NCBI GenBank assembly: GCA_001724265.1
Contig: MEDY01000022.1
Span: forward strand, 1-64,000
From: Rhizaria sp. SCN 62-66
Lineage: Eukaryota
DNA: 64,000 nt
Reading direction: 5' to 3'
Part shown: positions 3,607-64,000 of the stretch, piece by piece
Position numbering within the stretch: position 1 is the stretch's first letter
Layout of the letters: each line of letters begins with the position of its first letter
Notes under the pieces: model-generated
Told to the model about the DNA's origin: nothing
The model's input: the letters and a program-made list of their open reading frames with translations, nothing else
The model's database searches: none
Made by a program: the position numbers and the translations under genes

Positions 3607-4404
3607 TGCGCGGTCTGTAAACAGGTCCAAAGGCGCAGCACAACGTAACAGCAAAATGGGAGTCAAAGTGGGCGACAAAAATGAGGCAAGTTCGTACGGA
3701 TGCAAGGACTCTGTCAAAAAACACGTTTTAAGAACAGCACTAAACAGCATAACTAGTCTCATAAATGGGTGTCATATATTTCACATGCGGTCAATGGGTG
3801 CAGACGAGCGGGTCAAAGTTGAGATGAAAGAGGAGCCGTTACTAGTCGCGGTGGAACACCCAAACATTTTTCGGCCCCGTCGCGTTCGCTGCTTCCGTCC
3901 GCCGCTCGTCGTTCACCAACGCGCCTAACCCGTTCACCACGAATATTTATCGTCTGATCTGTCAAAACATTGGTTTGGAACCATTGGTGGATTGCATTGT
4001 CCATTTTCTATATGAAAAGCATAATTATATCTTGCAGAAAGTTGTATATGTGTCACGATGACTCCTTAAAATCAGCCGACTGATCACTCAGTTCGCCTGA
4101 CACCTTCTCGGCACGTCCAACCGCTCTCACGATCCTCACTTGATTAAATGTCTGAATATCTCGTGTGATCTTCCACGTGTAGCTTAGCTCAGCGCGGTTG
4201 TACCCCAACACAATCTTGTTGGCGCGTGCTGCCCCACTCTCCCGCCCTTATCCCGCCACCACAGCCGAGGTTGCTCGCTGCTGGTGGACGGACTCTCGGT
4301 AACTCCGGCGCCACCGCCTGCGTCCCTCTATCAGCTCACTCCCCGCGTCACATTATCGTTGCACAACGCTTGCTACGTGCCCGCGCTGTCCCGGGACCCG
4401 GACG

Positions 4405-8766: not shown

Positions 8767-8832
<66 letters not shown>

Positions 8833-17239: not shown

Positions 17240-17638
17240 TTGACGGACTTCTGCCCTCCATATCCTTACTTGTTTGACCGACCTCACCTTCGTGTCTCGG
17301 TCCCCGTTCGCCCACCGCCACCAGTCAGTCGCGACCGTTTTTTGGGGCTTGAATTGTTTAGTGTTGGGATACTATCCAGATCCGTCTGATCGCAATTTCA
17401 TTTGAATATGCGATGTTTCGCAACACGAACTACTCTAGCTTTGTTTCTCATTTTTCCAGCTTCTTGCTCAGCAGTTCAAGGTATGCCTTACGATCTCGCT
17501 TGCGAACACTGCTCACCATGCTTCCCAATCAAACATATCCTCTTCCCCTGGCCCCAGAACTGCACCGAAGCCGACTTTTGTCTCTCTACACAGTACTCCT
17601 GACAATCTTGATTAGGTAAATTCTGCTCAACGTCTGAG

Positions 17639-17718
17639 ATGTCTCAGCCCCCGTTGGGTTCCCGCGATGCGGCGAGCGTCACCCTCCCGGGCATCCACGC
17701 CCGCCGCTCCGCTGCCTC

Positions 17719-17753
<35 letters not shown>

Positions 17754-32700: not shown

Positions 32701-35700
32701 GACAAGGGCATCCTCGCGCTCCCGGCCTCCGCGCTCGCCTCAGCGTCGTCCTTCACGGCGGCTGCGGCCCCCGTGGCGTCCCCCGCGGCCGCCGCGCTGG
32801 CGCCCGCCGCCACTGAGTCCGCGGCCTTCGCGGGGGCCTGGGCGCCGCACGCCTCCCCCGCGGGCGCCGAGGCCGCCGACGCACAGAAGCGTCTGGTGAC
32901 TGCGTTACCGGCGTTGTGCACGCTCACGGTCGACCAGGCGGTGTGCCGCACGCCGGTGCAGGTGGCCACCGCGGTCGACTCATGGCTGCACCAGCTCGAG
33001 GCCGCCAGCGCCGCCGGGCTGCTCACCGTCACCGCGCCCAGCGGCGCGGCGGTCAACAACGATCGCAGCAACGAGAGCGAGATCGAGAGCAAGGATGCCT
33101 CGCTGTCGCGTCAGAACAGCGGCGCCTACGGCAGCAGCGGCGACGAAGGCAACGTGTTGATCCACGTCGGCCACGCCACGCTCGCGCTCGCGCCCGAGGA
33201 CGTCGCCACAGGCTCGCTGCTGCAGACGCTGTCCCGCGCCAAGTCCAGATCGGGCTCCCGCCGTGCGCTCACCACCGCGGCAGCGTCCGACAGCGCTGCC
33301 GCGGCGCTCACCGCGGTCGGCGGCGCGCGCGGCGAGAGCCTCAGTCTGCTGAGCTTCCGCTTGGGCTACACCGCGCTGCCGCCCGTCTCGGCCGCGGCGC
33401 CGCGCGCGTGGCTGCTCTCGGCGTGGCGGCCACAGGCGATGCCGATCGCGCGCGCGGTGTTCCTCGTCGCGCCACCAGGGTTCCCGCTCTTCCCGCTGTG
33501 CAACCATCTGACGACGGCCTACGACTTCAAGTGGCTCGACCTGCCCTCGCTTGTCGAGCGCGCCGTCGCCGAGGCCCCCGCGTCGCCCGTTGCCGGTATT
33601 GTGCGCCGCACCGTGGTGAAGCATGGCATGCTGCTCACGGACATGGCCAGCGGCGCCGCCGGGTCCGCCGCGTCAGCCGCGCGCGCCTACTCGGCCTCGG
33701 TCGCCGCTGGGTCCACCGTGGTGCCCGTCTCGGCCACGGCTATTGCGGCCGTCATCTCGAAGCTGCCGCCCGCGCTGCTCGTGCACGTGCTCCAGGACGC
33801 GATGCAGCGCGAGATCGCGCTCCCGCTCGCCGCCGCGGAAGACACCAACATGTCCACCGTCGCCGCGCACAGTCACCGCAACGCCAACGGCGGTGTGATG
33901 ACGGCGACGTCCGCGGCCGGCCTTAAGTCCGCACGCGCGCTGTCTGCGGGCCGCGCGTCGTTTATCGTCTCCGGCTTCCCCGCCGACAGCGACGCGTGGA
34001 CCGTCTGGCGCGCCTCTGCCGCCGCGCGCGCGTGTCCGCAGTCGCTGCTGGTGCTGCTGGACCAGGACCCGCTGGTGGCGGCGCTGTCGCCGAGCCCCGC
34101 CGCGCTGCAGGCCGCCCGCGAGGTGGCCGAGCGCGCCGCGCAGGAAGAGCGCGAGCGTCGTATGACCGACGCCATCGACCTCCAGCGGCGCTGCCGCGCG
34201 CGCGCGACGGCCGCCGTGGCGCCCGCGCTGGAGCGCGCCGCCGCCGTGGCGTGGCTGCGCGACACGGCTGCCGCCGAGCGCGCGCGCGCCGCCGCGCTGC
34301 GCACCGCGGCCGACGCCGTCGTTGCGGCCGCCGCGGAGGAGGCTGCGCGGCTGGCGCCCGGCGAGACGCAGGAGCGCGGCGAGCGCATGGCGCGCATCGC
34401 GGCCGCGCAGGACACGCGGCTGTGCACGTTTGCGCTCTCCTGCACCTTCCTGCCCGCCATCCTTGCCGAGGCCGACTACAACAGCGGCAACGGCCAGGGC
34501 AGCGCTGGCGGTGACGGCAGCGGTGGCAACGCCGTGCTGCGCCTGCACCGGCGGGTGTCCGGCGCGGCGGCCGCGGGCGTGAGCGCGCCCCTGCAGCAGT
34601 CCTCGGCCGTGGCGCCCGGCCGACACGCCGAGTTCGCGGCGCACATCGTGCTGCGGCTGCCGATGGCGCTGCCACGGTCCGCGCTCTCGGCTGCACAGGA
34701 GCAGGCTAAGCTCCAGCAGCAGCAGCAGCAGCAACAGCAGTTGCAGCAGGTTGACGCTGACGGCGAGCTGATTGAGCACGTCTCCGGCAACACCGGCAAC
34801 GCGAACGCCGTCGTGCCCGAGGCCGAGGACGACTCGGCAGCCATCCGCGCCGCCGCCAATGCATACCTCAGCCGCGAGCTCGCCACCCAGTACGTCTTCA
34901 CAATCTCTCGCCCCAGCTCGAGCAATGGCAGCGGCGACGGCGGCGCGTTTTCGCTTGACGACGTCGTCGCCGTGGCCGAGGTTACCGCGGCCGAGCTCGT
35001 CGCCGCCGCCCGCTCCGGCTCTCTTGTGGCCCGCCTGACGCCCGCGGCGGGCGTCGCGCTGTCGCGCTCGGCGCAGCTCGTCGTGCGCACCGTCTCCGTC
35101 GCGCCTACGCCCTTCGACGCCGCGGCGGCCGAGCCCGAGTCGGCGCTGCTCTCCGCCGCCGCCGCGGCCGCCGCCGAGGCCCACCGCGCCGAGGCCGCCC
35201 GGTGCGACGCGCGAGCACAGGAGACCGACGCGGAGCTCGCGCTGGTGCTGTCCGGCCGCGCCCCCGCGCCCGAGGTGCCGCCCGCGGCCGCCGCGACGTC
35301 GCCGGCCGCCGCGCTGGCGCTGGACGCCGTGGCCGCGGTGCGCCGCCGCGCCGCCGACGCCGCGGCGGCCATGGCGACGGCGGATGCTGGCGTGCGCGCG
35401 CTCGAGGCCGAGGCCGAGGCCGCCGCGGCGGGCCCCGCGACGCCGGCGCCGCTGGTGCGCGACAAGGTTCTCGCGCAGCTGTCGCCGCAGGACCGCGCGC
35501 AAGTGCTGGTGTTCGAGGAGGCGACGCTGCCGCTGTGCCGCTCGCTCGCCGCCGAGGACCAGTGCGCGGTCGTGCCCGTGGCGGCCGACGCCGAGCGCGA
35601 AACGGTGTACGAGCACCTCGTCGCCGCCATGCACCAGCGGCTGCCGGACATCGAGGTGCTGTCGATGGCCGAGAAGGAGGCGCTGCCCGCCGCGCTCGAC

Positions 35701-36489
35701 GCCGCGGAAGCCGCCACGGCCGGCACGCACGCCAACAGCCTCGGCAGCGGCACGTCCACGGACGCCAATGCCGCCGCCGCCGCTGCTGCTGCGGGCGCTC
35801 GCAAGCCGAAGCCGCCGCTGCGTCTGTCATTCCTGCTGGGTCCCGCGGGCAGTGGCAAGCGGTCCCTGGTCAAGAGCGTGCTGCAGAAGTACTCCAGCAG
35901 CGTCGTGCACCTGGATGCCGCGAAGCTGGTCCAGGAGGAGCGCGAGAGCGCCCTCGACCTCGGCGCGGGTTCCCCAGGCGCCGGATCCGCGGGCGCGGAG
36001 GAGCACGTGGACCAGGCCGCCGTGCGCATCATCCTGCGGCAGGCGGCGGCGATCGCGGCCGCGGCGGGGGGAAACAGCACGAGCAGCTTCGTCGTGACCG
36101 GCTTCCCGCAGACGGTCAGCGGGTGGGGCTTCCTGCTCCAGGAGCCCACGGTTTCGCGCGCCAACGCGGCCGGCCGCAGCAAGGAGGCCGCCGGCGGCGG
36201 GCTCCGCGGGCCGCGCTTTGAGGTGGCCTCGGTGCTGCTGCTCGCATGCCCGCAGAACACGTGCCTGCAGCGCATGCTGAAGCAGGGCGTGCCGCTCAAG
36301 GCGGCGCAGGCGGCAGGCAAGGAGTACGAGGCCAACCAGAAGCACGTCGTGGCGCGGCTGATGCAAGAGGAGCCCATCCTGTCCACGACCGTGTCCGCCA
36401 ACGGGCCGCTCGAGACGGTTGCCGGCGAGGTCGCCGCGCATCTGGCCAAGGTCCTCGTGCTCGCGCCCGACAACGGCAACAACGCGTAA
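17639..36489 (+). CDS. Giant protein (~6242 aa) with ~15 tandem adenylate/UMP-CMP-kinase-like P-loop domains. Exons 17639-26995 and 27118-36489
   Basis: The 3121-aa and 3122-aa ORFs are joined by a phase-0 122-nt GT-AG intron. The recurring unit is hydrophobic strand-GGPG(A/S)G(K/R/T)...LL...hhhhxGFP...hhhLD(C/V)P, separated by Ala/Ser-rich linkers. TAA stop. Confidence 0.88.
26996..27117 (+). other. Spliceosomal intron (122 nt)
   Basis: GAG|GTACGA...GCTAATCACTTCAG|GCT; AT-rich, with a CTAAT branch-point-like motif just upstream of the AG; phase 0 on both sides. Confidence 0.9.
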
Positions 36490-43560: not shown

Positions 43561-46231
43561 GCAGTGAGTGCGATACGAAACGCCACACTGAACATTGAGG
43601 GCGTCGCAGTGTGTGCAATCCACAGTGTGCAGTCTTGCGGTGTGGTTGCGTGTGGTTGGGTGCCATCGATCTGTCTATGATCGATGAAGTATATACTATG
43701 TAAGGTGTATCGTGCTTGACAGTTTGTTCACTCGTAGTTTGAGTGTAAGTTCTAACTTAAAAAGGCGAGAAACTTTCGGCAAGGCTCTTTTTATTAGAGG
43801 TTTACGTAGTATTACGTTGCGCAACTCCCTGTTTTTTAAAGTTCATTGTGGTTCTGATATGCTCGTTCGCAGTTTTCCTATTTTTAGTGTTTGTGTGTAA
43901 TGCATGTAAGGTTTGTCAAGGGTATCTTGTGTATTATTATGTTTGGTAGTCGTATTCTTCAGTCTTGTATTAATATATTATTCATTCATAGAACATGTTG
44001 TGATGAAATACACAATTCAAACACGCTATTCAGATCCACGCTTGAGCATAAGTGATGATAATTGTGTATGATATCGCGATTGGGAGACAAAAAAAGAAGT
44101 TCACCAAGGCGCAAGCGCGCACGAACACGTCGACAGCGACGATACGGCGGCAGCAAGATGCGCGTGGGGGGTATTATAATAGTTGTTGTGGGATTAACAG
44201 CAAAAAGAGGGGTATGGACAGTGACAGAGGGCAACAGGGAAATGAGAACTAAAGAGTGATGGCAAATTCGAAAATGATCGACACATAAACGAAATTGACG
44301 AAAACAAATCAAATCTGACATAATCGTGTCAAAGAAATGAGCGTGTCTTTTGGGTGAGTATACGAGGGTGAGAAAGACACACGGTGAGTTAACCATGGTG
44401 AGAGGAGATGTAAGGGAGAGGACTATAGGGGGAAACGAATAAAGAGAGAAAGAGAGAGAGATGGAGAGATGGAGACTGTGTAGAGGCGCGCAAGGGAGAT
44501 GGGTGACTCGAGACCTAGTGCGAAGATAATCGAATACGCGGAGATTGCTCGGGAGACCGCCGCGGTCGAGATGGCAACACAGCAGTGGAAGAGAGAACAT
44601 AGCACGCGCGCGCAGAAAGAGATAACGAGAGCAAGAGGGAGAGAGAGAGAGAGAGCGTGATGAACAAAAAGCTCGTCACAGGCATGCGATGCAGTGCATG
44701 AGAGCGATATGTTGATTTTTGTTCTGGGCACCAGTTGCGACGTCGCAAGACATCTAGAGAGAGGGGTTTTGAGACGCGCGCGCGAACGGAGGTTATAATT
44801 GTTGTAATTGCTGAGTATTTAAGCGAAATCACAAAGGATAACAATCTAGAGTAAGAAGTGGGAGTGTGCGTGACGGTGAGCGCGAGTGCAGAGGCGGTCA
44901 TGTGGGTTTAGAGAGACAATATCACCTAATTGCAGTCACTGTGACGAGAGTGACAATGAGCGACGATGATGCTAACATTAATGTGATACGTAGACGGATA
45001 CACGCGCGTACACTCATGACGAGTATGAAACGGTTGTCGAGCCGCTACTTTGTTAACAAAACGAAAACGAGGACAGAACATGTGGTGAGTAAAAAACACA
45101 AAAGTAGGCGTTAAAAGATAGCAAAAAAAGACGGTCAAATAAGCCGCCGATAAAAAGTATATGAATGCGATGATTACACATATGATCAGTGTTATCGTGA
45201 AGAAAGGCAACGAGAGGCACCATCGGACGACGTGACTGTAAGAGCGAGAGTGGTCGCCGCGTCACGGCCGAAGCGTGGGTTTCGTCGCCGGGAGAGGGGG
45301 AGAGGGCACTACAAGTGTTGTAATTGAGATATACGTAGGAACTGCAGCTGAGTGCGTGTTATCATGAGTGCGTGTGACTCTGGGCATGGTGGTTATGCGT
45401 GCGAATTGACTGGGTGCAAGATCGTGATGGATGAGTTGTCATTCTTGTGGTAACGAATGAACTAACAACGGAGAAGTATTAAACAACTTAAAAAACAAAT
45501 AACGACGATGTGGGGGCGCGCAAGCAGCTGATATAGCGGCAATATTTTTGTTTTGAAGACTAAGAAAATAAATAAAACTACAACGGAACTACAACGGAAA
45601 TGAACTATTATTACAAAAATAAAGCACTGAATGATCTCCCTGAAACACATGTGTGCGAACAACGTCTGGTGGCTGGGGCAGTAGTGAATAACAGAGAGCT
45701 GCTGGTTGGATCTACACAGTAAGTCCCGTGGAAAAAACAACAACAATCAAGCTGGCTGCATTCATTATGTTGTACCATCAGGACCTGAGACAACATGTTT
45801 GTTTAGGGTTTCGAGAAAGGATAAAAAAGGAAAAATACAAAGATACAAATAGAAAAATACGAGTATACAAAAACAACACACTGGGTTACAATATTACGCA
45901 AGGTTGCCTGCGACGGCGAGGCAAGCTGCTGCAATGGCGCACACGGTTGATGATGCGCACATTGACACACGTTCACTTTACAGTCAGAATCACACTGAAA
46001 AACGCAAAAATAAGAAATGAAGGAGGACACAAACATGTCAAGAACAGAGAAATTCACACAAAAAAATGCGTTCGTGAATTTCAGTGTCACACCTTTTACA
46101 CGCAACAATGCGCACATGTGGCGATTCGTGACCTTGTCATGCTGGTGTTGCCGGGTGCAATTTGAGACATAACGACTGACATGTCTTTGCACACAGCGGC
46201 AGAGCGGGTGTCGTTGAACAGCAGTAAGCGC

Positions 46232-47086
46232 TTACTGATCGAACTGGTCCTGCGAGTAGTCTTGCTCCGCCGCCACGTCGGCCGTGGTGGCAGTGGCGGA
46301 CGCCGATGCAGAGGCCGGGGCCGACGCCGCGGCGGTCACGGGGTCTGAGTCGGTGTCGTAGACGAAGGTGTCGTCCTCGGCATTGTCGTCGGCGCCGCTG
46401 CTCGCGGGGCGCTGCAGGGGCACCGCGCTGCGCGCGGCGGGTGCAGAAGCGGTGTCGCGGTCGGTTGGGGAGGCGCGGACGAGTGCGGAGAAAGCAATAA
46501 ATGATATAGAGGAAGGTGGATGAGCGGTCGGAGATTAGGGTTTTGCGAAGAGTGACAGACATATCAAAATCAGATCACCGGTTTAAGGCCATGAATAGAT
46601 GAGATGCATAAACACAAATTAGCGCGTGGTAACGTACGCATCAGCGTCCTGGGCGCGCCGCACCTCGATCTGGGCGACCTGACCACCGACGAAGCCGACG
46701 TCAACGAGGGAGAGCACATCATCGAGGACCTTGCCACTCGAGGCGACGTCAATCACAGACTGGTTAAAAAGCATCACGCGGTCCAGGTAGGCCTTAAGGT
46801 AGGAGACGGGGAGGTCAAGGCGGAACTCCTCGGTCGCGATGTGTTCGGTGTTGTCGGGGAGGGTAAAGACGACCTGCGGCGCGGCGAGCAACAAGAAACG
46901 AGCGAAATGGGAAAAAGAAAGGCGATAGAAAGTGAGTTCAACAATGTCTTTAGGAGCAATGGGAACGATATCCTGCAGAGAGATGGATATAACTCGTGTT
47001 AGACATACCTTTAGAGAACCTTGGTTGACGGGGGCGTGAGACTTGCGGGTTTCGTCGGAGATGTTGGCCAAGTTGAGCTTGAACAT
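46232..47086 (-). CDS. Small protein with a probable ubiquitin-like (beta-grasp) domain and acidic tail. Exons 47086-47009, 46873-46638, 46427-46232 (~169 aa; 3' end uncertain)
   Basis: GC-rich exons joined in frame by GT-AG introns: MFKLNLAN...GSLK|VVFTLPD...EEFRLDLPVSYLKAYL...SSGKVLDDVLSLVDVG...IEV. The V-x-x-LK...GK-x-L-x-D-x-x-SL-x-D pattern is ubiquitin-like. The TAA overlaps a possible GTAAGC donor. Confidence 0.65.
46428..46637 (-). other. Spliceosomal intron (210 nt)
   Basis: GC|GTACGT...GCGCAG|C; phase 2 is consistent with the downstream acidic exon. Confidence 0.7.
46874..47008 (-). other. Spliceosomal intron (135 nt, in-frame and stop-free)
   Basis: AAG|GTATGT...CCGCAG|GTC; AT-rich. 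Confidence 0.75.
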
Positions 47087-50165: not shown

Positions 50166-50629
50166 GTGAGTGGCTGTTTGTCGTGGCTTGTTTGTTCGAT
50201 GAGCGTGCGTTTCGTGTCGCTTGCTGCGTGAGGATTTATAACAAGTAGTTGAGGGTTCTTGGTTTTTATTTTTGAGAGTATGATCGAGATATAGTAATGT
50301 AGTATTGTATTTTAAGGTCGTTGCATACATCACCGACGTTTTATCATTGCATTCCCATTATTTTTTTGATTAGTTCCGGTGTTGGCGAAGTTGAGAGCTG
50401 TCACCGAGGAGCTTCGGAGGTCTTGAGCTGGTCATTTTGTCTTACGTATTCCGAGCTTATTTGATCGTAGAATGAGTGTAATTGGACTTAGCTAGCTTTA
50501 AACTCCTGATTTTATCTTGTCTCTTTTTGGAAACTATTTTGTGACTCATATTTCTCAACTTATCACTAGTTTTCTCCAGGGCTGTTTGAGTCTAGCTTCA
50601 GTGCTGTTCCTGAGCTCTACTCGCCCGTC

Positions 50630-53077
50630 ATGCAACCCCAGGACAGCGACTCTAGCGTCACTGCTCCTGGTGAACCTATAGATCTTCCACCTGGTTTTTC
50701 CTTAAAGCGCCGACGCGGTACAGTCTGCGTCCAGCCTCTGCAAACCGAGCACGACCCCACCAACTTCGTCCTGCAGTCGCTCAACCTCACAGCATCATCC
50801 GACGCAAACACAAACACACTTGAAGCAAACTCGACTGCGCCGAGCTTCGGTCTCTCCGCAGCAGCTACCAGCTCTCCCATCATCAAGCTCTCGCAGATCA
50901 CCACCGATCTCGCCAAGAGCAAGCTGCGCACTGTACTGGCGTCACACGCAACGTTCAAGCTCCTGTCCCCGCGCGTTCTCGACTCGCTGCTCACACAGTT
51001 CACGCTTGCTCTCCACACGAGCCCCGGCAAGACGCTGCTTGCGCCACCGCAGGAAGCGCCGTTTGACACGTTTCTCGTCGTGCTCACTGGCGCTGTCGCA
51101 GTCACTCGCACTGCAACAACATACGCTGATGCAGTGACATCTGGCGCAAATCGCAACACTGCTGTATCTATGGGTGAGGCAGAGACTGAGACGACGACGA
51201 TTGTGCTGACTGCGCCCGCGACTGTGGGCGATGTGGTGCTGGTTCATCCCCAGTTTCCTCCCCCGCTGCTCACAGTCACATCTCACGCCTACAGCAACAA
51301 CTTCAACAACAACACCACCTCCACGAACACGAGATGTCTCGCTGACACTGACAGCGTGGACTCTGCTGCTGCGGCTGCTGCCGCTGCTGTCGATGCTTCA
51401 GTCTTGAATACCACCGCGAGCGACGTGCTGTCGCGCTCTCTGCCTGTCGGCGCAGTCGTCACCGCGGCGCTGGATGGCGGCCGATACCGGTTCGTGGTGG
51501 CTAAGCAGGCCCAGCAGACGCGCGCTGCACTCATGGCTGCGCTCACACCCGTCGCGATTTCACTGCTTGCAAATCGCCCAGATTGCGCGGCCCTGCAACA
51601 GCAACCGCAGCAGCAGGAACAACAGCTTGTGACGCGCATCGCGTCCGCGCTGTCTGACCGTGCGCACTTGTCCTGGCTCTCGGTGTCAAGCTCGAAGACT
51701 CACACCGGTGCCGGCTATGGCTCTGGCGCCGGCGGTGTTCGAGGTGCGCAGATGTTCAGCTGGGACGAATTGGTCGAGGCAGAGTCGCACATAACGGCGC
51801 ACGCGCGCAGGCAACGTCGGAGTACGGGCAATGCGCTGACTAACCACACGATCACGAACGTTAATGCTGTGAAGACCCACCGTAGTGTGCAGCGCAAGCG
51901 CACGAGTATTGCGAACATCAAGCTCCCTCTGTCGGCGTGTGACAACGAATCGAGTGCGACAGAGCACGAGACTGCGCCCAGCGACTACTCGGTGCCCAAC
52001 TCCCGTCAGGACTACCCCAGCTCACGTGCAAACATTGGTGTCACCGCGAGTGCTGTTCAGAGTGTGAAGAAGGCCGGTCTCAGCAAGCTGCCCTTGATTC
52101 GCGAGTCGGCGATGATTGATGCAAGCACTCATGACGCACAACCCGGCGATGCTATGCGGAGTGCAGCGGCGTTGCCTAGTTCTACCACTGTCCGCCCCGC
52201 AGTGACTGAGCTGCACTCTGGCTCCGAGGCCGACTGCTCTGACACGGACGGCGCTTCAGACTACCGTCACACCGACGCAGCGAGCGCGCGGGCCCGCAGT
52301 CGCGGCGGCAAGGACAAGAAGAGCGCCAGCGACAACGGCCGCGATAGTACTAGTGAGAGCGCGAGTGCGAGTGTTAGCGAAGATGAGAGCGAGTTTCAGA
52401 GCGACTGTGAGAACGCGCACTACGGCCTCAGTCCGCTGCTGCTTACGGTCTCGCACGGCAACGTCACCGCAGTGCAGGACACGTACCACGACCGCTGCTG
52501 CCCGTCACAGGCGCACACTCGCGGCAAGCACACTTCTGGCACTGGCCACACGAAGAGTGTCGATTCCATTGCGAAGCAGCGCCACCGTGTGGCACCAGGT
52601 GGTCGTGCCAACGCCAATTACGGCGCGGCGAGTAACGATACCGCAACGTCTGTTGTGCAGATGTCCAACAACGACGACGATGACGACGATGACACTGTGC
52701 ACCTACCGTTTCCCAACGCGCATCAGAGTGCGAGCGCGACTGCATTGCTTTCCACAGCTGCGCCTGCAAGGTTGCGCGAGGTTCCCGTCCCCGCACTGCG
52801 AACTGTGCGCCTTGCCCGCCCCGTCTCGCTGCACGTGCGGTGCGCCCCGTGCTACACCACAGCCGCGCTCGAAACCAACGCCGACGCTGCGGTTGTCTGG
52901 GTCAGTGAGCGCGCCGCTGCCGAGGCCGTCGCCGCCGTTGTGGGTGCTGCCCGCCGTAACGTTAAGGCAAACGGTAGCCCCTGGAACACTGCGGTTGATG
53001 ATGACGAGGCTGGCAGCGCGTGCGTTGCAGCTTACGCCGCGGCTTTAACATGTGTCGATATCAATCACACGAATTAA
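50630..53077 (+). CDS. Divergent cyclic-nucleotide-binding-domain protein resembling a PKA regulatory subunit, 815 aa
   Basis: KRRRGTVC inhibitor-site-like motif, then LRTVLASHATFKLL...FDTFLVVLTGAVAV...TVGDVVLV...ALDGGRYRFVV...R...L, collinear with PKA-R CNB-A; long low-complexity insertions. TAA stop. Confidence 0.6.
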   Translation: MQPQDSDSSVTAPGEPIDLPPGFSLKRRRGTVCVQPLQTEHDPTNFVLQSLNLTASSDANTNTLEANSTAPSFGLSAAATSSPIIKLSQITTDLAKSKLRTVLASHATFKLLSPRVLDSLLTQFTLALHTSPGKTLLAPPQEAPFDTFLVVLTGAVAVTRTATTYADAVTSGANRNTAVSMGEAETETTTIVLTAPATVGDVVLVHPQFPPPLLTVTSHAYSNNFNNNTTSTNTRCLADTDSVDSAAAAAAAAVDASVLNTTASDVLSRSLPVGAVVTAALDGGRYRFVVAKQAQQTRAALMAALTPVAISLLANRPDCAALQQQPQQQEQQLVTRIASALSDRAHLSWLSVSSSKTHTGAGYGSGAGGVRGAQMFSWDELVEAESHITAHARRQRRSTGNALTNHTITNVNAVKTHRSVQRKRTSIANIKLPLSACDNESSATEHETAPSDYSVPNSRQDYPSSRANIGVTASAVQSVKKAGLSKLPLIRESAMIDASTHDAQPGDAMRSAAALPSSTTVRPAVTELHSGSEADCSDTDGASDYRHTDAASARARSRGGKDKKSASDNGRDSTSESASASVSEDESEFQSDCENAHYGLSPLLLTVSHGNVTAVQDTYHDRCCPSQAHTRGKHTSGTGHTKSVDSIAKQRHRVAPGGRANANYGAASNDTATSVVQMSNNDDDDDDDTVHLPFPNAHQSASATALLSTAAPARLREVPVPALRTVRLARPVSLHVRCAPCYTTAALETNADAAVVWVSERAAAEAVAAVVGAARRNVKANGSPWNTAVDDDEAGSACVAAYAAALTCVDINHTN

Positions 53078-53899: not shown

Positions 53900-56800
53900 T
53901 TAGAGCAGCATCTCAAGCTCCCACCGCCTGTTAATGTTGTTCTCGTCGTCCTCGATCTTGGGGAAGGCTGCGACCATGGCGTCCTGGCACGCGACGTACA
54001 TCGCGTTGTAGTACCGCCAGTAGACGCTGCGGACTTTGCGCGCAGGGTGGAACAGCCCCGCCGCGAGGTACAACATCATGCGCTGTGGCCCCAGCGCCAG
54101 GCGCAGCCCCTCGACGGCGTCGGACACGGCGTTCATGACGTGCGGCGACGTCTCGAACATGTTGGGCCAGATGAGGTTGAGAAAGTGCTGCATCGCGTCC
54201 TCGCGGCCGAGCCCAGTGACCCCCAGCGCGATGTGCTTAACCACGCTGCACGCCGTCTGCCGGTGCACGATGTCGCGGTCCGTCAGCGCGTCCTCGAGCA
54301 GTGGCGCGACGGCGTACACGTAGTCCTTGCCCAGCTCGCCGACGTACTCGAACAGGAACGACAACGTCTTGAGTACGCCGTTCTGCACGTTGAGGTCGGG
54401 CGCGCGATACTCGTTCATGAGCGCCGGCAGCACCGTGAAGGGTTGGCAAGTCTCGGCAACGATCGCAATCGCCACGCTCGTGCAGACACGGGACGTGCGG
54501 TCCTGCACCTTGAGGTTGTTGAGCAGCGTGACGAGCACCTCGTGCGGGCCGATGGCGCGCGCGATGAAGCCGAACGTGTTGGCGGCGGCGCGGCGGATGG
54601 CCTTGCGGGGCGCACGCAGCATGTCGAGCAGGTCGAAGCAGATGCGCATCCACTCTTTCTGCGAGACGTGGTCCGCGCCGCGGTCCGCGATGCAGCCGAT
54701 GAGGTCAATCAGGCTCTCCTGCACGCGCTCGTGCTTATTCTTGATGATGGGCGTAAGGCGCGGCAGCAGGTCGCCGATGGGCGGCGTCATGACCTCCATG
54801 CCCACCACGCGCACGATGGCGCGCATGGCGCCGATGACCGACGCGAGCACCTCGGGGTACTCCTCGCCCAGCGACTCAAACAGCACGACGCCTAGCGAGC
54901 AGAGCACGGCCTCCTCGCCGCACTGCGCCATCACGGGCGCGACGCGCGCGAGCAGGTCCGCCGCCTGCTGCCGCATCTTGGCGTAACGGTTGTTGAGCAG
55001 GAACTTAACCATCCCGCACACGGGCGGCACGTAGTTCTTGGCGCGCTGCCCGAAGGTCGCGAACACCGCGCTGAAGGCGACCAGAATGGCGTTGCCGCCG
55101 GCGCTGTTGTCCACCTCGTCCGCGGTCGCCGAGGTGATCTGGAGCTGGAACGCGTGGATCATGCCATCGAAAACGCGCTCCTCGAGCCGCTTGTCCACGT
55201 CCGCGACGCCCAGCTGCGTGACGATGCCCTCGATGGCGTCGGCGACCATACGGCGGTACTGCGGCGCCTCGTCCTTGAGGTCGTCGACGAGCCGCTCGAC
55301 CAGCGCGGCGCCGCCGACCTTGATCGCGAGGTCGATCGTGGCCACCACCACGGCCTTGCGGTTGCGCACGTCCAGCGCTGTCCGGCGGTTCCAGAAGGCC
55401 GCGAAGAAGGGCGGCACGACCTCGGTGCGGACGTAATCCGCGTCGATGCCCTCGGCGGCGACGAGCTGCTTGACCACCACGAGCACGATGCGCTTCATCT
55501 CGGTGTCGCTCGAGGCGAACTCGCGGACGACGATCTCCATCGCGTTCTTGGCGTAGTGCGCGGCGTGCTCAGGCGACATGAGTGGGACGATGAAGCCGAC
55601 GGCCTTGAGGAAGGCGGCGAGCGTCTTGCCCTTGTTGATGCGGACGCCCTGCCAGAGCGAGTGCAGCACTTCGTCGAAGGCGTCGATGCCATAGGGGTAC
55701 GCGCCCTCGGCCAGTGACGCGAGCGCGAGCGCCGTGATGCACCGCACCTTGGTGCTCTCGTCCGTGAGCCCGTGCTTGATGGTGTCGATCAGCGAGGGCA
55801 GGTGGGGCAGCACGGAACAGCCAATCAAAACAGCGATCTGCTGCACGATCTTAATGCCTGTGTGGCGAGCCTCCCAGCTCTTGGTGTACTTGGTCACGGC
55901 CTTGAGGAAGGGAACGGTCGACGCGATGCCCAGCGTCGAGGCGACGACAGCGAAGGCGCGCGCGGTGGCGTTGCGTGTGTACTCGTCGGGGCTGTCGATA
56001 TCTGCGCGCATCGTGCTGATCATCGTGGCCAGCCCGGCCGCCTTGGACAGGTTGGCGATCAGCTCGCGGGCCTCGGCGCGCGCGTAGTGGTCCTCGTCCA
56101 GGAGCATCGGCTGGATCACCACGAGCAGCTTGTGCACATACGGCCGCACGCGGTCGTCGAGCCGGTACAGAACGCGGTCGATCACCTTGACGAGGCGGTG
56201 GCGCTCGATCGCGTCCAGCTCGTCCGACATGAACAGCGGCAGGATGACCGAAAACAGCGCCGAGGGGCCGTACACGGGCGCGCGGTCTGTGATGGCGCGC
56301 AGCGCCGACTTGCGCTGCGGGGGCGCGCCGTTCTTGATCTTGAGCAGCAGCAACAGGATCTGGCGCTCATGTTGCTCGGCGGTCGACAGCGAGTCGTCGT
56401 CGACGGACTCGAGGAGCTTGCCGAAGTGCTTCACGTCATCCTTTTTGGTGAAGGCGATGTTGTCCAGCTCGGGCGGCAGCTCCACGCCGTACTCCTTGGC
56501 CGTCTCAGCGAACGTCGCGGCCGTGGGGCTGGTGGACCGCGCGAGCGCGCCGCCCAGCACGGCCTTGCTGGCCCCGTCCTCCTCCTCCTCCTCGTCGTCG
56601 TTGTCGCTGGCGCCCAGCGCGTCGTGCTGCGCGGCCAGCAACGCGTCGGCCTCGGCGGACCGCGCGGGCGCGTAGCCAGCGGGCGGGGCGACGACGACGA
56701 AGCCCTCGGCCTCACCGGGCAACAGCGCGTCCAGCTCCGCGTCGCTCAACGGACGCGTGTGCTGCTCAGACAGGCGCTGGCTGCGCGCCTCAATCGCGCC

Positions 56801-57654
56801 GATCGTCGCGGCGGCGGCGGACGCGGCGGCCGTGGCGGCAGGGGCAGTGGCGGGGGCGGTGTCCCAGCGGGAGACGCGCGCGGGCGCGGCGGGCGCGGTG
56901 GCCGCGGCACTGCCAGAGGCTGACTGGGCGACAGAGGGCCCGGCGACACTGCCAGAGGCGTTGATGAGAGTGGACGCGGGCTTGGCGGGCCAGTCGTCGT
57001 CGTTCATCGCCATTCCGCCCTCCTCCTTCTTCACTGCGCCGTCGGCCGCTGTCATGATGGGGAGGGGCGCGGGTGGCACCGCGGGCCCGTCGTCCCAGCG
57101 GCGGCGCTTGGCGCGCGCGGGCGCCGCTGAGGGCGCGGAGTCGCTCGGCGCGGTCGCGGGCACGGCGACTGTGGCCGCGGCGGAGCTGGCGAGCTCGCGG
57201 GCCAGCGAGTCAGCCTCCTGCTTCTGCTGGATCTGGCGCAGGACGACCTGGCGCTCCCGCTCCAGCCGCTGCTCCTCCAGCGCGTCCTTGAACGAGCGCA
57301 GCTCCCCCGCGCCCGCGGCGGCGGCGGCGGAGTTGGCCGAGGGCGCGGCAAAGGGGTCAGCGCGCTCGGGGGATAGCGCGCGGTTGTGGCGGCGCTTCTG
57401 GTAGTCGGATTCCTTGTCGGCGAGAGTTGCGCGGCGGCGGTCCGCCAGCGGGTCCGAGTGCAGCGCGCCCTCCTTGGACGCGGTGTCCAGGGCCGCGCGA
57501 ATGATATCTACGCAACGGGGAATGTGACAAATGGAGATGTGATGATGATGTTGCAGTGAGATGTGATAGCGTGGTTGTGTGGAGGTAATGAACGGTCGGG
57601 AGCGACAGTGATTGAATTTGGAAGTGGGGACGGACCTTCTTGAGACTGCGACAT
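53900..57654 (-). CDS. SF3B1: Splicing factor 3B subunit 1. Exons 57654-57636 and 57507-53900, ~1208 aa
   Basis: ADKESDYQKRR...SPERADPF, RRRWD ULM, RPLSDAELDALLP, LLLKIKNGAPPQRKSALR, HEAT repeats with DEYTRNATARAF, WEARHTGIKIVQQI, LGEEYPEVL, C-terminal GLFHPARKVR...WELEMLL. A 19-nt first exon (MSQSQE-D) is inferred from phase. TAA stop. Confidence 0.96.
57508..57635 (-). other. Spliceosomal intron (128 nt)
   Basis: GAAG|GTCCGT...GCGTAG|AT; phase 1 links ATG 57654 to the SF3B1 frame. Confidence 0.75.
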
Positions 57655-58122
57655 TTTACGCTCGCACAAGCGTATATACGCACGTTGACTTCCTTGCTCC
57701 GGTAGTTAGAGTTGCGTGGGTGTGTTTCTTAGGGAGCTGTTGGACTATGGAGTCGAATAAAGGTGAGGCTGCGGTTTGCTGTGAGCACGGGTCAGGAGCA
57801 TGACGAGTACATCATATGGATAGTCGTCAATACAAATTTCACTTTAGTTACAGATAAGTTGCAATGTGAACATGCAACTCAAAGAATGATGATGCTAATT
57901 GACGTGGTGAGCGATTGAGATTTCATATTCATTTCGAACCGCGGTTGGACGCTGACCGTGGGTCGTGTTGGAGCTGGCTGATTGCGACCCGTTAGCGCCT
58001 CTTGCCACGTAAACAAACGAGAATTTACGTTCCAAGTAGTAATGTATTGATTCTAGTCTAAAATTGAATTATGTCACATAAACATGGTATTTATATATCT
58101 AAACAAGCTTATTATTATGAAA

Positions 58123-61100
58123 TCACTTGCGGATGTTGGACCAGAGCGAATTCTGAGGCGCGCTCTTGATGAGTTGATCCGACGGGCGCGGCGTCTTAGC
58201 TGCCGTTGCATCCGCCTTAGCAGCGCCAGCTGCGTTCGCAGGACGCTTCTTAGCCTTGTTCAGCAGCGCCACTGATGACTGAATGGCGTTGTCGGCCTGC
58301 GCAAGAAGAGCAAGGTGCTCCTAAGAGAGACCGGCGCCGACAGCAGTGTGTTGTTGATGCTGTTGTGGTTGTTGTTGTGCGGTAACATGAGCATTGCCAG
58401 TCGCGAGAGAGCTCGAGTTCAGGTGAGGCTGAGCGGCGGCGTGCATCGAGTGCGCCGCGGGGTCGTATAAGTACGAGTGCGAGTGCTCAGCGTCGTCGTA
58501 CACGCTGTTGAAACCGCCGTTGCTGCTATCGATCGCAGTGTGGCTCTGAGCGGCGAGGGCGGCAGCTTCCTCATGCTCCCACTGCTCCTGCTGGGTGTTG
58601 TATTGACGACCATCGGCAGCGTAGTACTGGCCGTGGCCGTGCTCGTCGCTACCGTAGTCGTCGTCGTTGTAGTCACCAGAGACGTCGTTGATGTTGTCGA
58701 CACCAGCGTGAGCTGACTCAGCGAAACGAACACGAAACGCGCTCGCGTCCGCAATGTTGCCACTGGTCGCAGTCATGCCAGGAGGATAGTATTCCTCGTT
58801 TTCGTCCTCGCCATTGTAGTTGTCAGCATCAACACCATCGTACTGATCATAGTCATCGCCGTTTTTGTTGTAGTCGTTGACGCGGACAGGGCTGTGGCGC
58901 TGCGTCGCGATTGCGCGCTGCAGGATCATCGCATCAGCCATTGCCTCAGCCTCCGCGTCCGCCGCGTCAGCAGCCTCCGCGTTTGCGGCGACAGCGGCGA
59001 TCGCGGCCTGCTCGTAGTCGTACTCGTCTTCGTCCTCCACAGTGGCGTCGCCAGCATCGCCAGCGTGACCCTGCTCTTGCTCGTCGTGGCCATACGGGTC
59101 ATGGTTGTAGTCGTTGCCATATGCATCAGGTGCAGCGTGCCCATTGACGTTGTTGCGGTTGATGTTGTAGTCGTAGTGGTGGATGCTGTCACGCTCGTCG
59201 CCGCCGTCGTCATTGTCACCTTCAACGCCGTCATCGTGGTTGTTGGTGTTAAAAACGACATCGCTATCGACATTGGCGGCGTCAGAGTAAGGGTCGTAGC
59301 TGAAACCATCTTCGACAGCAGCAGTGGGCACAGTCAGAAGGTCATGCTGACGTTGCCGCTGAACCTGATGTTGCTGGTAAGAAAAAGAAGCTTCCTGAGC
59401 AGAAAGTACACCATTTTTGTTGTCGTTATGAGCGACACCGCTGTGGCTCGAGTCGGCAACGCCTTCAACAGCTCTAACAACGCCGCCGTGCTGCATGCTC
59501 GCGTTCGCGCTGTGGTTGCCCGATGCGCTCGAGCTGAACACACTCGCGTTCGCGTTATCAACAGCAGTGACCTGACTATTGTTGGCACTAGCGCCGTTGG
59601 AGTGAATGCCATCGTCAGTGATGGCGCCATGAGAAAGGTTATTGGCTCTCACTTTCCAGTACCCCAGTCCACTCCGTTCAGCGTCACCGACCGAGTCATC
59701 CGAGTCGTTCGTTCCATGCACCGCTGCGGCGTGCGACACAACAGGAACGGCGTTCGCGGCGTCAGTGTGACGATCGCTTGCCTAAGGCCTGCGGGACACG
59801 TTGGTGTTGTTCTCAGCCGTCGCGTTGGCGTCATCATCGAACCCGAGTTGCCGGCGCAAGTTCGCGATCGCGCTTGTGTGACCCCGCGCGTTGACCGGAG
59901 ACCAGCCTGCATAGCCCGTCGCGCTGTTGCCGTTCGCGCTCAAGCTCGTGGTCGCGCTCGTGGTCGAAGTGGCGACCTGTACGCGCACGAGCTCACGTCC
60001 CGCGACGCCCGCCCTGACCGCGTCGGGATGCAGTGGCGCGCGGTCGGCGACGCCGGCCAGCACAGCGACGGGGTCGACGGTGATGCCCACGTCGGGCACC
60101 GCGCGCTCCGCGTAGAAGGTGCGGCCAGCGTTCGCCTTGTGCTGCGGCGACGCGAGGTACGTCTTGGTGAACTCGCGCTGGCTTGACGGAAGCACGGCGT
60201 GCGCGTTGGCCCCACCTGAGGCCGCGGCGGAGGCGGCAACGGCGAGAGGAACGCCCGTGGCGGCGGCGATGTCGGCGACCTTGCGCTTCTGCTGCAGCGA
60301 AGTTGATCCCGTGTAGAACGGAGGCTTGCTGCCGCTGCCGCTGGCATTAGCAGATGCGCGAGCGTGGGGCGAGCGCGAGCGGGAGTTCGACTGCGTCGAC
60401 TGCGACTGCGAGCGGGAGCGGGTCTGCGACCGCGAGCGCGACTGCGAGCGCGAGCGCGAGGTGCGCACGCGGGAGCTTTTGACCAGATCATACACCGCGT
60501 CACCAGCGTTGCTACTCGCAGCAGCGGCGGCCGCGTTGGCGGCGGCGACGTCAGCCTCGTAGGAGCGGCCCAGAGCGACGGGCGTGTGCTCACGCTGCGT
60601 CGGCGGGCGGTACACTGCGCCAGTAGGTGACACGACGAGGTTGCCCACGCGGGACGACGACGACGACGGGGACATCGCGCTACCCGCAGCAGCGGCAGCG
60701 GTGGCGGCAGAGCGGGGGGAAACGACGTCAACGGTGAGCTTGTCGTTCATTGCAATGCGGACGCTGCTGGGGCTACCGCCTGCAGCGGCATTGCTGCCGT
60801 ATGACGCCGCGGGGATGCGAGGCAGGTAGTGACTGCTGCTACTACCACTAGAGATGTTGTTCTCGTCGGCACCGGGGACGTACTCCGCGTAGTCAGCCTG
60901 CGCCCACTGGCCGTGCGCGGCGGCGGGGCCAGGCACGGTCGCGACGGGCTGGTTGCGCTTGAGCTGGTTCTGGGCGATGTACACGTCGACGACGTCCTCG
61001 CGCTCGCCGTCGTTGGCAGCAGAAGCGGCGGTGGATGTGTTAAGACTGTTGTTCATCAGCATACTCGCATCACGCGCGTTGCCGGAGACGAGGTGGATGC

Positions 61101-64000
61101 GCGAGTGCGACACATCGTGCTGCTGCTGGTGTCGCTGAGTCGCGATGCTGGTGTCGATGTTGCTGACAGTGTAGTGGTCTGAGGTGCGGCGAGGCGCGGC
61201 ACCGGCGGCGGCGGCGGACGCGGCGAGACTCGCGTTCGGCGAGGCGCCCAGGCCGACGATCTCGCCGTTGCTCGCGGTGGCACGGGCAGAGGGCAGCGGG
61301 GACGTGAGGTTGTTCGCAGCCCCCTTGGTGCCACTGCGAGCTGTGTTGCTCTGAGGGGAGGCGGCGGCGGCCGAAAGCGAATACTTATTGACGCGGCCGT
61401 CGGTGTGCTCGATGATGACGTCGACGTTGCGGCCCTCGGTGTCAACAAAGTCGTCCGTGTTGATGACCACGTGCGCGCTGACCGACTCGGCAGCGACGCG
61501 GGTGTCATCAGCGCCGCGCGTGTTGCTGCTGGCAGCGGGAGCGCGAGAGTAGTTCATGGCGCTCACGTTGTTGCGGCTATTGCCGTTCATGTGGCCGTGA
61601 GCCAATGTCGACACCCACTGTGACACACCGAGATCGTCAGCGTCGACGTTCGTCGTCGCATTCACGGCGCCGAACGTGACGTTGCCGTCCGCGCCCGCGT
61701 GCATCGCCGCGCCACCCGGCAGCACTGTGGCGAAGATGTCGTCGAGCGGAGCCAGCCCGCGCTGCGCCAGCACCACGGGCGGCGCCATGTCGTTGTTCAC
61801 CTTAGCCACGTACACCAGCTCCGTCTCGAAGCGCTCGATCGCGGCCGTGAAGGCGTTCGGGTCGTCGCCAGCGGTTGCCTCGACGACGGCCTTGAACAGG
61901 CGGCCAAGACGCTCGGTGGCTCCGTTGAGCGCGCGCGTGAGCTTGTGACTGGCGCGGTACGCTACGGAGAGGCGGTCGCGCTGCTCACGGAAAGCAGCGG
62001 CGCGCTCACGCTCAGCCTCAGCCGCGGCCTCAGCGGCGCCGGCGCGGGCGTTCACGACTTCCTCGACGCGCGCAGAGCGTGCGATGGCGAGCTGCGCCTC
62101 GTTCTCGATCGCGCGCGCGCGGGCCTCCCCGTCAGCCTCTGCGCGGCGCGTGCGCTCCTCGCTGTGTGCGAGCACCTCCGCGCTCTGCGCTTGCTCGGAT
62201 GCGATCCGGGAGCCAGCGCGCTTGACGTCGGCCTCGGCGGCCGCGAGCGCCTGCTGCAGCAGCTCGATCGCGCCCTCGCGCTTGGCCAGCATCGCGCGCA
62301 CGGCCTCCAGCTCGGCGCGCGCGCGGTGCCCGGCCTCGGCGTGGTCGCTGCGCAGCGCCTCAACGAACGTGGCATGCTGCGCCTGCGCGTCCCGCAGCGC
62401 GGCGGCCGAGTCCAGTGCGAGCCGCTCCAACCGCGCGGCCTCGTCGTCGCGCGCAGAGTCTGCGCGGGTCTCCCACACGCGCTTCTGGTCGACCAGCTCC
62501 CTCGTCAGCGTCTCGACGCGCGTGTCGGCGGCCGCGGCGGCCTCGGTGGCCTGCGCAAGCCGCGTGCGCAGTTGCGCCTGGTCGGCCTCCATCTTGGCGC
62601 GGCGCTGCTCCTCCTGCGCCAGCTTGCCGCGCGTCTCGGCCGCCTCGGCGCGCGCGGCAGTGAGCTTGCCCTCGAACGCGGCAGCGTCGGCGCTCGCGGC
62701 CGCCGCGTCTGAACGCGCCTCCGCGACAGCGTGGCGTAGGCGCGTTGCCTCGTCGTCGCTGTTGGCGCGGGCGTGTGCGTCAATGCGAGCGCGCACTTCA
62801 GCAGCCGCGGCGAGCTCCTTCGCGGCCTGTGTGGCGGCGGCGGCGGCAGCGGCGTCGGCAAGTGCGGCGTCGAGCTTGCTCTGCATTGCGCGCACGGCGG
62901 CGCGCTCGCGCTCGAGCCCGGCGCGCGTGTCTTCGTGCGCGGCCTCCGCGGTCGCCACAGCGCGGCGCCAGGTGACCGCGGCCTCCGCCACGGCGGCCTC
63001 GCCGCGCGCGCGCTCCTCGGCCAAGGACTCGGCGAGGCGGTCGCGCTCGCGCCGGGCCTCCTCAGCGGCGGCCTGCGCGCGGCGCAGCTCCTGCAGGTGA
63101 GCGCGCGCAGCGGCGTCGGCGGTGTCGCGCGCCTCCTTGGTGGCGTCCTGCGCGCGCGCGTGCGCCTCCGTCTCGCAACGGCGCACCGACTCCTGCGCGG
63201 CGCGCAATGCGGCCTCAGCGGTCTCAGCGCGAGCGGTGGCGTCGGCCGCGCGGCGCAGCGCGTCGTCACAGCGGCGCTCAGCATCAGCCGCGGCGTCCGC
63301 GCGCTGGCGCTCCGAGCCCTCCTTGACTGCGGCGAGGCGCGCGGCGGCATCGGCGGCGGCGCGCGTAGCCAGGTCGAGCTTCTCCTGCATGTGCGCGACG
63401 GCTGTGGCGGCGTCAGCGGCTGCGGCGTCGACCTTGGCCTGCCACGCCTTCTCGCGCGCGCCCGTCGCAAGCGCGCTGCGCTGGCCCTCGGCCGCTGCGG
63501 CGCCCAGCGCGGCCGACAGCTCGGCGCGCAGAGTCTCTTGTGCGACCGAGCCCTGCGTCAGCAGCACGTCCTTGGTCCGGATCTCGGCCAGCGCCGAGTC
63601 AAGCTGCGCCTGCATCTGCGTGCGCGTCTGCGCCAGCGCCACGGTGGTATCGCCGAGCTGCTTCTTAAGCTCCTCACTGGCGCTCTGAAGGGCGGACATA
63701 CGGCGCTCGTGGCCCTCCGCCTCGCTGCTCTTGCGCTGGCGCTCGGCAGTCTCGGTCGCGAGCAGCGCTTCAAGCTCACGGACGCGCGTCTCGTGCTGCG
63801 CGCGCGTTTCCTTAAAGCGCGCGGCGGCCTTCTCGGCGGCGGCCTTGGCCTTGGCGACCTCGTCCTCGGAGGCCACCGCGCGCGCAACAGCGCTCTCGGC
63901 CTCGGCAGTCAGGCGCGCGAGCTCGGCCTTGACGGCGCGGTCGCAGCGGTCCACGTCAGCGCGCGCCTGCGCCGCGGCCTGCGCGCGCTCGTGCTCCAGC
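58123..64000 (-). CDS. Large Ala/Glu/Arg-rich coiled-coil protein with a disordered acidic C-terminal half; 5'-partial, >1950 aa, containing two in-frame TAG codons (59782-59784 and 58321-58323)
   Basis: The frame is open from the window end. ORFs 59782-63954 and 58321-59739 share a frame and are separated only by TAG. After the second TAG, 65 more codons (EHLALLAQADNAIQSSVALLNKAKKRP...SLWSNIRK) run to TGA at 58123-58125, followed by AT-rich DNA. Confidence 0.75.

Follow-up and report, generated by a model that had tools for sequence, protein, structure and literature searches.

We analyzed a 64,000-nucleotide stretch of eukaryotic DNA (positions 1 to 64,000 of contig MEDY01000022.1, assembly GCA_001724265.1, deposited as Rhizaria sp. 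SCN 62-66; here referred to as the window), in which three TAG triplets stand within otherwise open reading frames. Two of them, TAG1 (59782 to 59784) and TAG2 (58321 to 58323), lie in one gene on the minus strand, and the third, TAG3 (10882 to 10884), lies in a second gene on the plus strand. The TAGs are real, the frame downstream of each is open and coding-like up to an AT-rich spacer, and both TAG1 and TAG3 bear signs of a protein end. At all three, translation probably runs past UAG at least some of the time, and the sequence evidence suggests that the stop is leaky and not that the codon has been cleanly reassigned. The reading that we favor, tentatively and with somewhat less than an even chance of being right, is that UAG is leaky or ambiguous in this organism and would give rise to both short and extended products.

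Reading frames beyond three TAG codons

The minus-strand frame is entered at position 63999, with the 5′ end of the gene outside the window, and comprises 1958 codons in all. Segment A (59785 to 63999) supplies the 1405 codons upstream of TAG1; it has a coiled-coil-like N-terminal part followed by an Asn/Ser/Ala-rich, low-complexity part, and its G+C content at third codon positions (GC3) is 0.85. TAG1 is codon 1406 (context CCT TAG GCA) and is followed by the 486 open codons of segment B (58324 to 59781), which is acidic, rich in Asn, Tyr, and His, and has a GC3 of 0.64; its first ATG lies 95 codons past TAG1. After TAG2 (codon 1893; context TCT TAG GAG) comes the Lys-rich segment C (58126 to 58320), whose 65 codons include no Met codon, so that it would be translated only if TAG2 were passed. 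The frame closes with a TGA (58123 to 58125), where GC-rich DNA borders AT-rich DNA; directly past the TGA, the GC content (60-nucleotide [nt] windows) drops from ~0.6 to 0.17 to 0.30. A preliminary description of the window had placed both TAGs in a single minus-strand frame, followed by 486 open codons and then by 65 that end in TGA at the GC-to-AT boundary, and its coordinates and counts proved exact.

That description had also counted a third TAG, which we located at 10882 to 10884 in a plus-strand frame opening at 4303. Upstream of TAG3 the second gene consists of a 2193-codon open frame, measured from stop to stop (4303 to 10881), that is Ser/Ala/Thr-rich and of low complexity, has a GC3 of 0.67, and gave no Pfam match. 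TAG3 is directly preceded by the peptide KDVGDD and followed by an extension, segment E (10885 to 11316), of 143 codons plus a TAA (11314 to 11316). Segment E also stops at a GC-to-AT boundary, where the GC content falls to 0.26 to 0.40.

Both minus-strand TAGs recur in Logan contigs from three studies dated 2015 to 2025 (X1, X3, and X4), of which X1 and X3 are flagged as possible sources of this DNA and X4, from 2025, is not. In X1, the whole of the stretch compared lies inside one contig with no differing letter at the TAGs. Two X3 contigs (records 9 for TAG2 and 12 for TAG1) carry both TAGs unchanged, with no other letter, and two X4 contigs (records 20 for TAG2 and 22 for TAG1) carry them unchanged and, within the stretch compared, differ from the window at 57503 and 58517 only. 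The preliminary description had named assembly error as a way in which its claim might fail. This is a low-complexity region of a metagenome in which many foreign contigs partly align on nearby GC-rich repeats, a setting that lends itself to assembly or sequencing errors; however, the three studies cover both TAGs without a differing letter, and X4 has its own single-nucleotide polymorphisms elsewhere. The agreement of contigs from other studies makes assembly error unlikely, and we consider an erroneous origin of the TAGs scarcely credible. The X4 variant at 58517 falls in segment B, where the plus-strand C-to-T change turns a GGC (Gly) codon into GAC (Asp); it is the sole variant seen inside the extensions. 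Segment A contains an Arg/Ser dipeptide run, RSRSRSQSRSRSQTRSRSQSQS (60390 to 60460, minus strand), and it is on this run and on other GC-rich low-complexity spots that unrelated metagenome contigs partly align, inflating the depth there.

To score coding potential, we used a codon-usage log-odds measure (in bits/codon) trained on eight Pfam-supported open reading frames (ORFs) of the window; frame 0 denotes the frame in which the TAG stands. Frame 0 is stop-free after each TAG, with the other sense frames holding 1 to 37 stops; in segment B, there are no stops in frame 0 compared with 5 and 37 in the other two. Segment B scored +0.297 in frame 0, with the next best frame, an antisense shadow, at −0.037. 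The corresponding values were +0.272 for segment C (other frames, −0.70 to −1.20) and −0.133 for segment E (other frames, −0.55 to −1.01), and over all post-TAG segments the other frames ranged from −0.04 to −1.9. For comparison, frame 0 scored 0.474 in segment A and +0.017 in the second gene upstream of TAG3, and three true spacers scored −0.5 to −1.3 in all frames. The signal in segment B is uneven: the first ~160 codons past TAG1 are weak (+0.07 and −0.03), and later blocks, at 0.26 to 0.56, reach the level of segment A. Segment B also keeps the codon preferences of the genome, with 21 TAC compared with 4 TAT and 19 CAG compared with 10 CAA. An antisense ORF at 58717 to 60183/60186 was set aside as a shadow frame on the strength of the scores given above (−0.037 compared with +0.297).

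The in-frame runs after TAG1, TAG2, and TAG3 measure 486, 65, and 143 codons, respectively, at a GC content of 0.58 to 0.60, compared with 1 to 65 codons (median, ~11) after the 12 TAA or TGA gene ends of the window; counted by hand, 2 of the 455 possible rank subsets reach this extreme. A downstream in-frame ORF with a coding signature, one of the features by which programmed readthrough is recognized, is thus present after all three TAGs. Because frame 0 is open and coding-like past each of them, the DNA there would be translated in the same frame, now or until very recently.

Homology searches returned little for these sequences. Pfam gave nothing above threshold for segments A, B, C, and E or for the antisense ORF at 58717 to 60183, segment A yielding a weak, sub-threshold Filament match. 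A word-index protein search with residues 1250 to 1958, restricted to candidates of 1076 to 3427 amino acids, found no match among 8000 scored. A HMMER search with residues 960 to 1958 (TAG read as Q; table 15) against 1.84 billion representatives found two matches, both of them TAG-cut fragments from this organism itself, and no member of the protein clusters spans a TAG; these clusters place the same proteins on an ENA contig of 139,679 bases. The stored proteins of this organism end at the TAGs (336, 472, and 49 residues); in practical terms, gene callers cut these genes at TAG. The spacers of the window held no further convincing TAG-containing gene.

Boundary marks and codon tallies

Synonymous codon usage changes at TAG1. 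In the 1958-codon frame, the maximum-likelihood two-segment change point of GC3 falls at codon 1405, next to TAG1 at codon 1406 (interval within 2 log-likelihood units, codons 1361 to 1409), with a GC3 of 0.853 before and 0.643 after it. GC-ending codons are favored before TAG1 with a Mantel-Haenszel odds ratio of 3.05 (P = 1 × 10⁻¹⁴; 655 compared with 486 codons), and when 150 codons on each side are compared, the odds ratio is 4.66 (P = 3 × 10⁻⁸). Since the test was stratified by amino acid, the shift is a synonymous one. Exon third positions in the window are far richer in GC than introns and spacers, and we therefore take GC3 to reflect selection tied to codon use; on that footing, the sharp drop at TAG1 suggests that the downstream part is used less. 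The Asn/Ser/Ala-rich character of the protein carries on across TAG1.

The mark at TAG3 is of another kind. Translating the entire window in six frames yields two copies of the peptide KDVGDD and no more, one at 10864 to 10881, abutting TAG3, and one at 11287 to 11304, three residues before the TAA that ends segment E. Standing just before TAG3 and again near the TAA of the second gene, the motif suggests that TAG3 behaves like a protein end. Four third-position changes, each of them synonymous, separate the two copies, which argues that both are kept at the protein level and that the extension is under protein-level selection. A tandem duplication of the end of the second gene was considered as the origin of segment E and rejected: the likeness is limited to the 6-residue motif, and the flanks of the two copies have no similarity beyond it. 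UAG acting as an ordinary sense codon would leave no boundary effect, and here one was found both at TAG1 (the change point) and at TAG3 (KDVGDD). The tripeptide RRP stands directly before TAG1 (59793 to 59785, minus strand) and before the final TAA of the second gene, a possible common C-terminal motif of these ends.

The 12 definable gene ends in the window use TAA nine times, TGA three times, and TAG not at all, the same totals as in the preliminary description. The TAA ends are those of a gene for an NDK/Dpy-30/adenylate-kinase (ADK) protein (860 to 862), the second gene, an epimerase gene, PIG-P, a giant ADK gene, BOP1, SF3B1, a gene near 46 kb (46232 to 46234; tentative), and an ORF at 50570 to 53077; the TGA ends are those of the AP-complex mu subunit (AP-mu) gene, an eIF4G-like gene, and the TAG1/TAG2 gene. 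Four ends (AP-mu, SF3B1, BOP1, and the epimerase) are anchored by alignment of a domain or homologue up to the C terminus, and three stops that resemble gene ends (TAA 1255, TGA 27002, and TAA 46619) lie, by our reading, inside introns. The absence of TAG from the 12 ends is weak evidence, because the standard-code fornicate Euthynema mutabile has a UAG terminator in only 7 of 170 genes (4%; PMC9161772).

TAG is absent from the 12,205 codons of the eight Pfam-supported ORFs in this 64-kb sample, among which CAA, itself a rare codon, appears 52 times, and the low-bias segments hold 3 TAG compared with 33 CAA, 34 GAA, and 32 TTG. The absence of TAG from so many conserved codons suggests that UAG is not a general-purpose sense codon. 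Conserved full-length ORFs contain no in-frame TAA or TGA, and extensions were found after TAG only.

Readings of the UAG codons

If UAG is leaky or ambiguous, most ribosomes would probably terminate at each TAG and release the shorter protein. A minority would decode UAG with a near-cognate tRNA or a suppressor tRNA with a CUA anticodon and continue in the same frame until a TAA or TGA is reached, producing C-terminally extended isoforms; for the TAG1/TAG2 gene, these isoforms would be A, A+B, and A+B+C. The downstream part would then be translated less, and a GC3 drop such as that at TAG1 would be expected. Translation past the TAGs, its frequency, and the tRNA responsible are inferred.

Several points weigh against this reading. 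The case for readthrough is built from DNA sequence, from three sites in two genes for which the protein searches returned no homologue, and the coincidences at TAG1 and TAG3 (the change point and KDVGDD) were spotted after the fact among those three sites. No shift in GC3 or in amino acid composition falls exactly at TAG2 (codon 1893); the nearest composition shifts are in Asp/Glu near codon 1847 and in Lys near codon 1915. None of the 12 gene ends uses TAG, although a leaky stop predicts some TAG ends; the sample is small. The +4 bases after TAG1, TAG2, and TAG3 are G, G, and A, and neither UAG-G nor UAG-A is known as a readthrough-promoting context. Folding of the 120 nt downstream compared with shuffled sequences gave z scores of +1.52 (TAG1), −0.48 (TAG2), and −1.99 (TAG3), the fold at TAG3 being marginally better than the shuffles (6/200), so that no consistent RNA structure or promoting 3′ context was found downstream of the three TAGs. 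A cause acting in trans would fit better than site-specific signals; a suppressor tRNA of weak activity and relaxed recognition of UAG by eRF1 are examples.

The preliminary description had proposed that UAG alone is reassigned to an amino acid, with UAA and UGA kept as stops and TAG surviving as a rare sense codon in weakly biased regions. Much of what it built on stands, namely genuine TAGs, no introns around them, coding-like in-frame sequence past all three, and no TAG gene ends. The proportion of 9 TAA to 3 TGA also resembles the UAA-dominated stops of Iotanema and the rhizarian exLh (PMC5304391), no readthrough-type structure or context marks the TAGs, and the Asn/Ser/Ala-rich character is unbroken across TAG1. 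What the results do not support is UAG as a rare but ordinary sense codon. The GC3 change point lies within 1 codon of TAG1, KDVGDD occurs both at TAG3 and at the real end of the second gene, TAG is missing from the conserved codons and scarce even in the low-bias segments, and its density is far under that of known UAG-sense lineages; the lack of TAG ends adds little, a low TAG share being seen in a standard-code organism too. We regard clean reassignment as unlikely. The opposite reading, that UAG is a plain stop, would have the minus-strand gene end at TAG1 and the second gene at TAG3, with the downstream frames being untranslated relics of truncation or with segment B separately expressed. 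The codon-usage break exactly at TAG1, the C-terminal look of KDVGDD before TAG3, and the weak signal over the first ~160 codons of segment B all agree with it, as does our own reckoning that nonsense mutations in GC3-rich codons mostly yield TAG. However, segment B runs for 486 codons without TAA or TGA and its later blocks score like segment A, whereas by rough estimate an unselected decay of GC3 from 0.85 to 0.64 should have brought several stops and frameshifts. Separate expression of segment B sits poorly with a first ATG 95 codons past TAG1 and with the lack of an AT-rich spacer such as those between other genes, and segment C is coding-like up to the AT-rich boundary despite having no Met. 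The second KDVGDD, differing only synonymously, points to protein-level selection on the extension, and it would be unusual for 2 of 12 genes that are otherwise intact to carry three truncations, all of them fixed in the 2015 to 2025 samples. A plain stop thus seems to us quite unlikely.

Removal of the TAGs by splicing of in-frame introns, or their alteration by RNA editing, was weighed against the introns that the window does contain. The intron of the NDK/Dpy-30/ADK gene (1311 to 1127, minus strand) is 185 nt long with a GC content of 0.37, is in phase 0, and reads CAG/GTACGT, a pyrimidine tract, and CAG/G; it joins an exon (860 to 1126) with a strong coding score, so that the true end of this gene is the TAA at 860 to 862 and not TAA 1255. 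The intron of the giant ADK gene (26996 to 27117, plus strand) is 122 nt long, likewise with a GC content of 0.37 and in phase 0, and reads GAG/GTACGA, CTAAT, and CAG/G. Introns thus exist in this genome, TAG1 and TAG2 stand in pyrimidine-AG/G contexts that resemble acceptor sites, and 178 nt before TAG2 there is a GTACGA. The known introns, however, have GTACG donors and long pyrimidine tracts and are AT-rich, whereas around the TAGs the GC content stays at 0.50 to 0.75 (60-nt windows) with no dip, and the frame-0 coding signal reaches right up to each TAG. No donor-like motif was found within 700 nt upstream of TAG1. A 181-nt candidate from the GTACGA at 58501 to the AG of TAG2 was rejected: it is GC-rich and coding in frame 0, and by frame arithmetic its removal would throw segment C out of the coding frame. 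Tiny in-frame GT-AG introns of 15 to 21 nt ending at each TAG were rejected as well; at TAG3, such an intron would remove the conserved VGDD. The statement in the preliminary description that no AT-rich intron surrounds TAG1 or TAG2 is borne out, the known introns being canonical, AT-rich, and elsewhere, and splicing or editing is a very improbable explanation.

A UAG meaning split from that of UAA is rare in nuclear genomes. UAG-only nuclear codes are described for Iotanema spirale (UAG = Gln), the rhizarian exLh (UAG = Leu), and phyllopharyngean ciliates (UAG = Leu or Gln) (PMC5304391, PMC11687900, and PMC10553269), so that a change of this kind would not be new. One report gives 204 in-frame UAG codons in 126 genes and stops of 104 UAA and 15 UGA for Iotanema, and 384 in-frame UAG codons in 71 genes and stops of 56 UAA and 15 UGA for exLh (PMC5304391). 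The window is like these systems in that UAG is the sole in-frame stop, UAA is the main and UGA the minor terminator, and no sampled gene ends in UAG. It is unlike them in that their UAG codons are frequent in conserved genes and align to one residue, while here there are three and none lies in a conserved gene; in addition, two of the three sit at positions like those of protein ends. The window is GC-rich and holds 64 kb of contiguous genes. Ciliate genomes, unlike this one, are AT-rich.

Programmed readthrough, as in Drosophila genes and at the UAG of viral gag-pol, offers another comparison. A coding-like extension in frame after the stop is common to both, double readthrough in one gene is possible in such systems, and the downstream part is apparently translated less. 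Unlike programmed readthrough, the extensions here are very long (143 to 552 codons), showed no known promoting context or downstream structure, and occur at high density (3 sites in 2 of 12 genes), all at UAG. In the ambiguous, position-dependent codes of Condylostoma, Parduczia, and Blastocrithidia, all three stops are known to serve as sense codons throughout genes; the likeness lies in the double role of a codon that would act as terminator and as sense, and the difference is that in the genes examined here no TAA or TGA stands in frame and TAG is extremely rare. Iotanema has a standard-code relative, Euthynema mutabile, that resembles the window in that UAG very seldom ends its genes, which the authors of that study call a possible early step toward abandoning UAG; no in-frame UAG is reported for it, unlike the three TAGs with coding-like extensions here (PMC9161772).

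Our preferred reading of a leaky or ambiguous UAG has a more specific form, which we put forward as a somewhat unlikely possibility: the organism, an uncultured wastewater eukaryote, may be at an intermediate stage of UAG capture, in which a UAG-decoding tRNA would compete with eRF1 genome-wide, and UAG would have been purged from ordinary gene ends and survive where both short and extended proteins are tolerated or useful. It is still debated whether a stop codon is captured after first being lost or by way of a stage of ambiguity. If true, an intermediate capture of UAG would be a living ambiguous intermediate outside the ciliates, fornicates, and sainouroid rhizarians, and the ambiguous stage could be tested directly in a free-living eukaryote whose UAG codons terminate some translation and let some continue. 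A lineage that uses UAG in both ways would represent a new variant in which ideas on stop-codon capture could usefully be tested. A plain stop or a clean reassignment would be less interesting and would still add a lineage with unusual UAG usage.

Organism and neighboring genes

Among the eukaryotic nuclear genes of the window, Pfam recognizes those for SF3B1, BOP1, an AP-complex mu subunit, PIG-P, an eIF4G-like MIF4G protein, an NDK/Dpy-30/ADK protein, and a giant protein with multiple ADK domains. Coding DNA is GC-rich, with a GC3 of 0.85 to 0.91 in most genes, and spacers and introns are AT-rich. DNA of the window recurs in Logan contigs from bioreactor and wastewater metagenome runs of 2015 to 2025, with no RNA run among those listed as carrying it, and next to none of its sampled words were present in two polyA metatranscriptome runs (study P3). 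A tRNA scan found no tRNA gene in the 64-kb window, an Rfam scan of the window gave no match, and the gene for eRF1 lies outside it.

The SF3B1 protein (53900 to 57655, minus strand) is unusually divergent. Its closest relative is a JGI protein (P0003) with 76% identity; apart from this one, identity to any other entry is at most 58% (partial alignments; 99 matches), and full-length SF3B1 proteins of named eukaryotes are ~50 to 52% identical. A quick tree built from this one gene had 22 rows, with no Amoebozoa, Rhizaria, Discoba, or Metamonada among them; in it, the window protein and P0003 share a long stem outside the opisthokonts, stramenopiles, green algae, haptophyte, and apicomplexan sampled. 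On this tree, the window organism is an unplaced, divergent eukaryote, and the long isolated branch may reflect a lineage that is deep or fast-evolving. A metagenome scan with SF3B1 gave 31 pattern matches and no relatives, and a second scan with P0003 gave 20 loci, all 50 to 60% identical and from other eukaryotes. An atlas search with the AP-mu protein likewise pointed to no taxonomic group.

The region from 44001 to 46000 has a low GC content (0.44 to 0.47) and a strong plus-strand purine skew (GC skew of up to 0.35 and AT skew of up to 0.29) and contains no convincing ORF. At 46230 to 47010 on the minus strand lies a multi-exon gene ending in the TAA at 46232 to 46234, with candidate introns opening with GTATGT at 47008 (CTAAC just after) and GTACGT at ~46636; its gene model is tentative, with candidate introns spread over 46.4 to 47.0 kb. 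On the plus strand, at 17612 to 36489, two ORFs of ~3130 codons each are joined by the 122-nt intron described above, in which TGA 27002 lies, into the single giant ADK gene of ~6250 codons, whose product matches adenylate-kinase domains at least eight times and an AAA domain at its C terminus.

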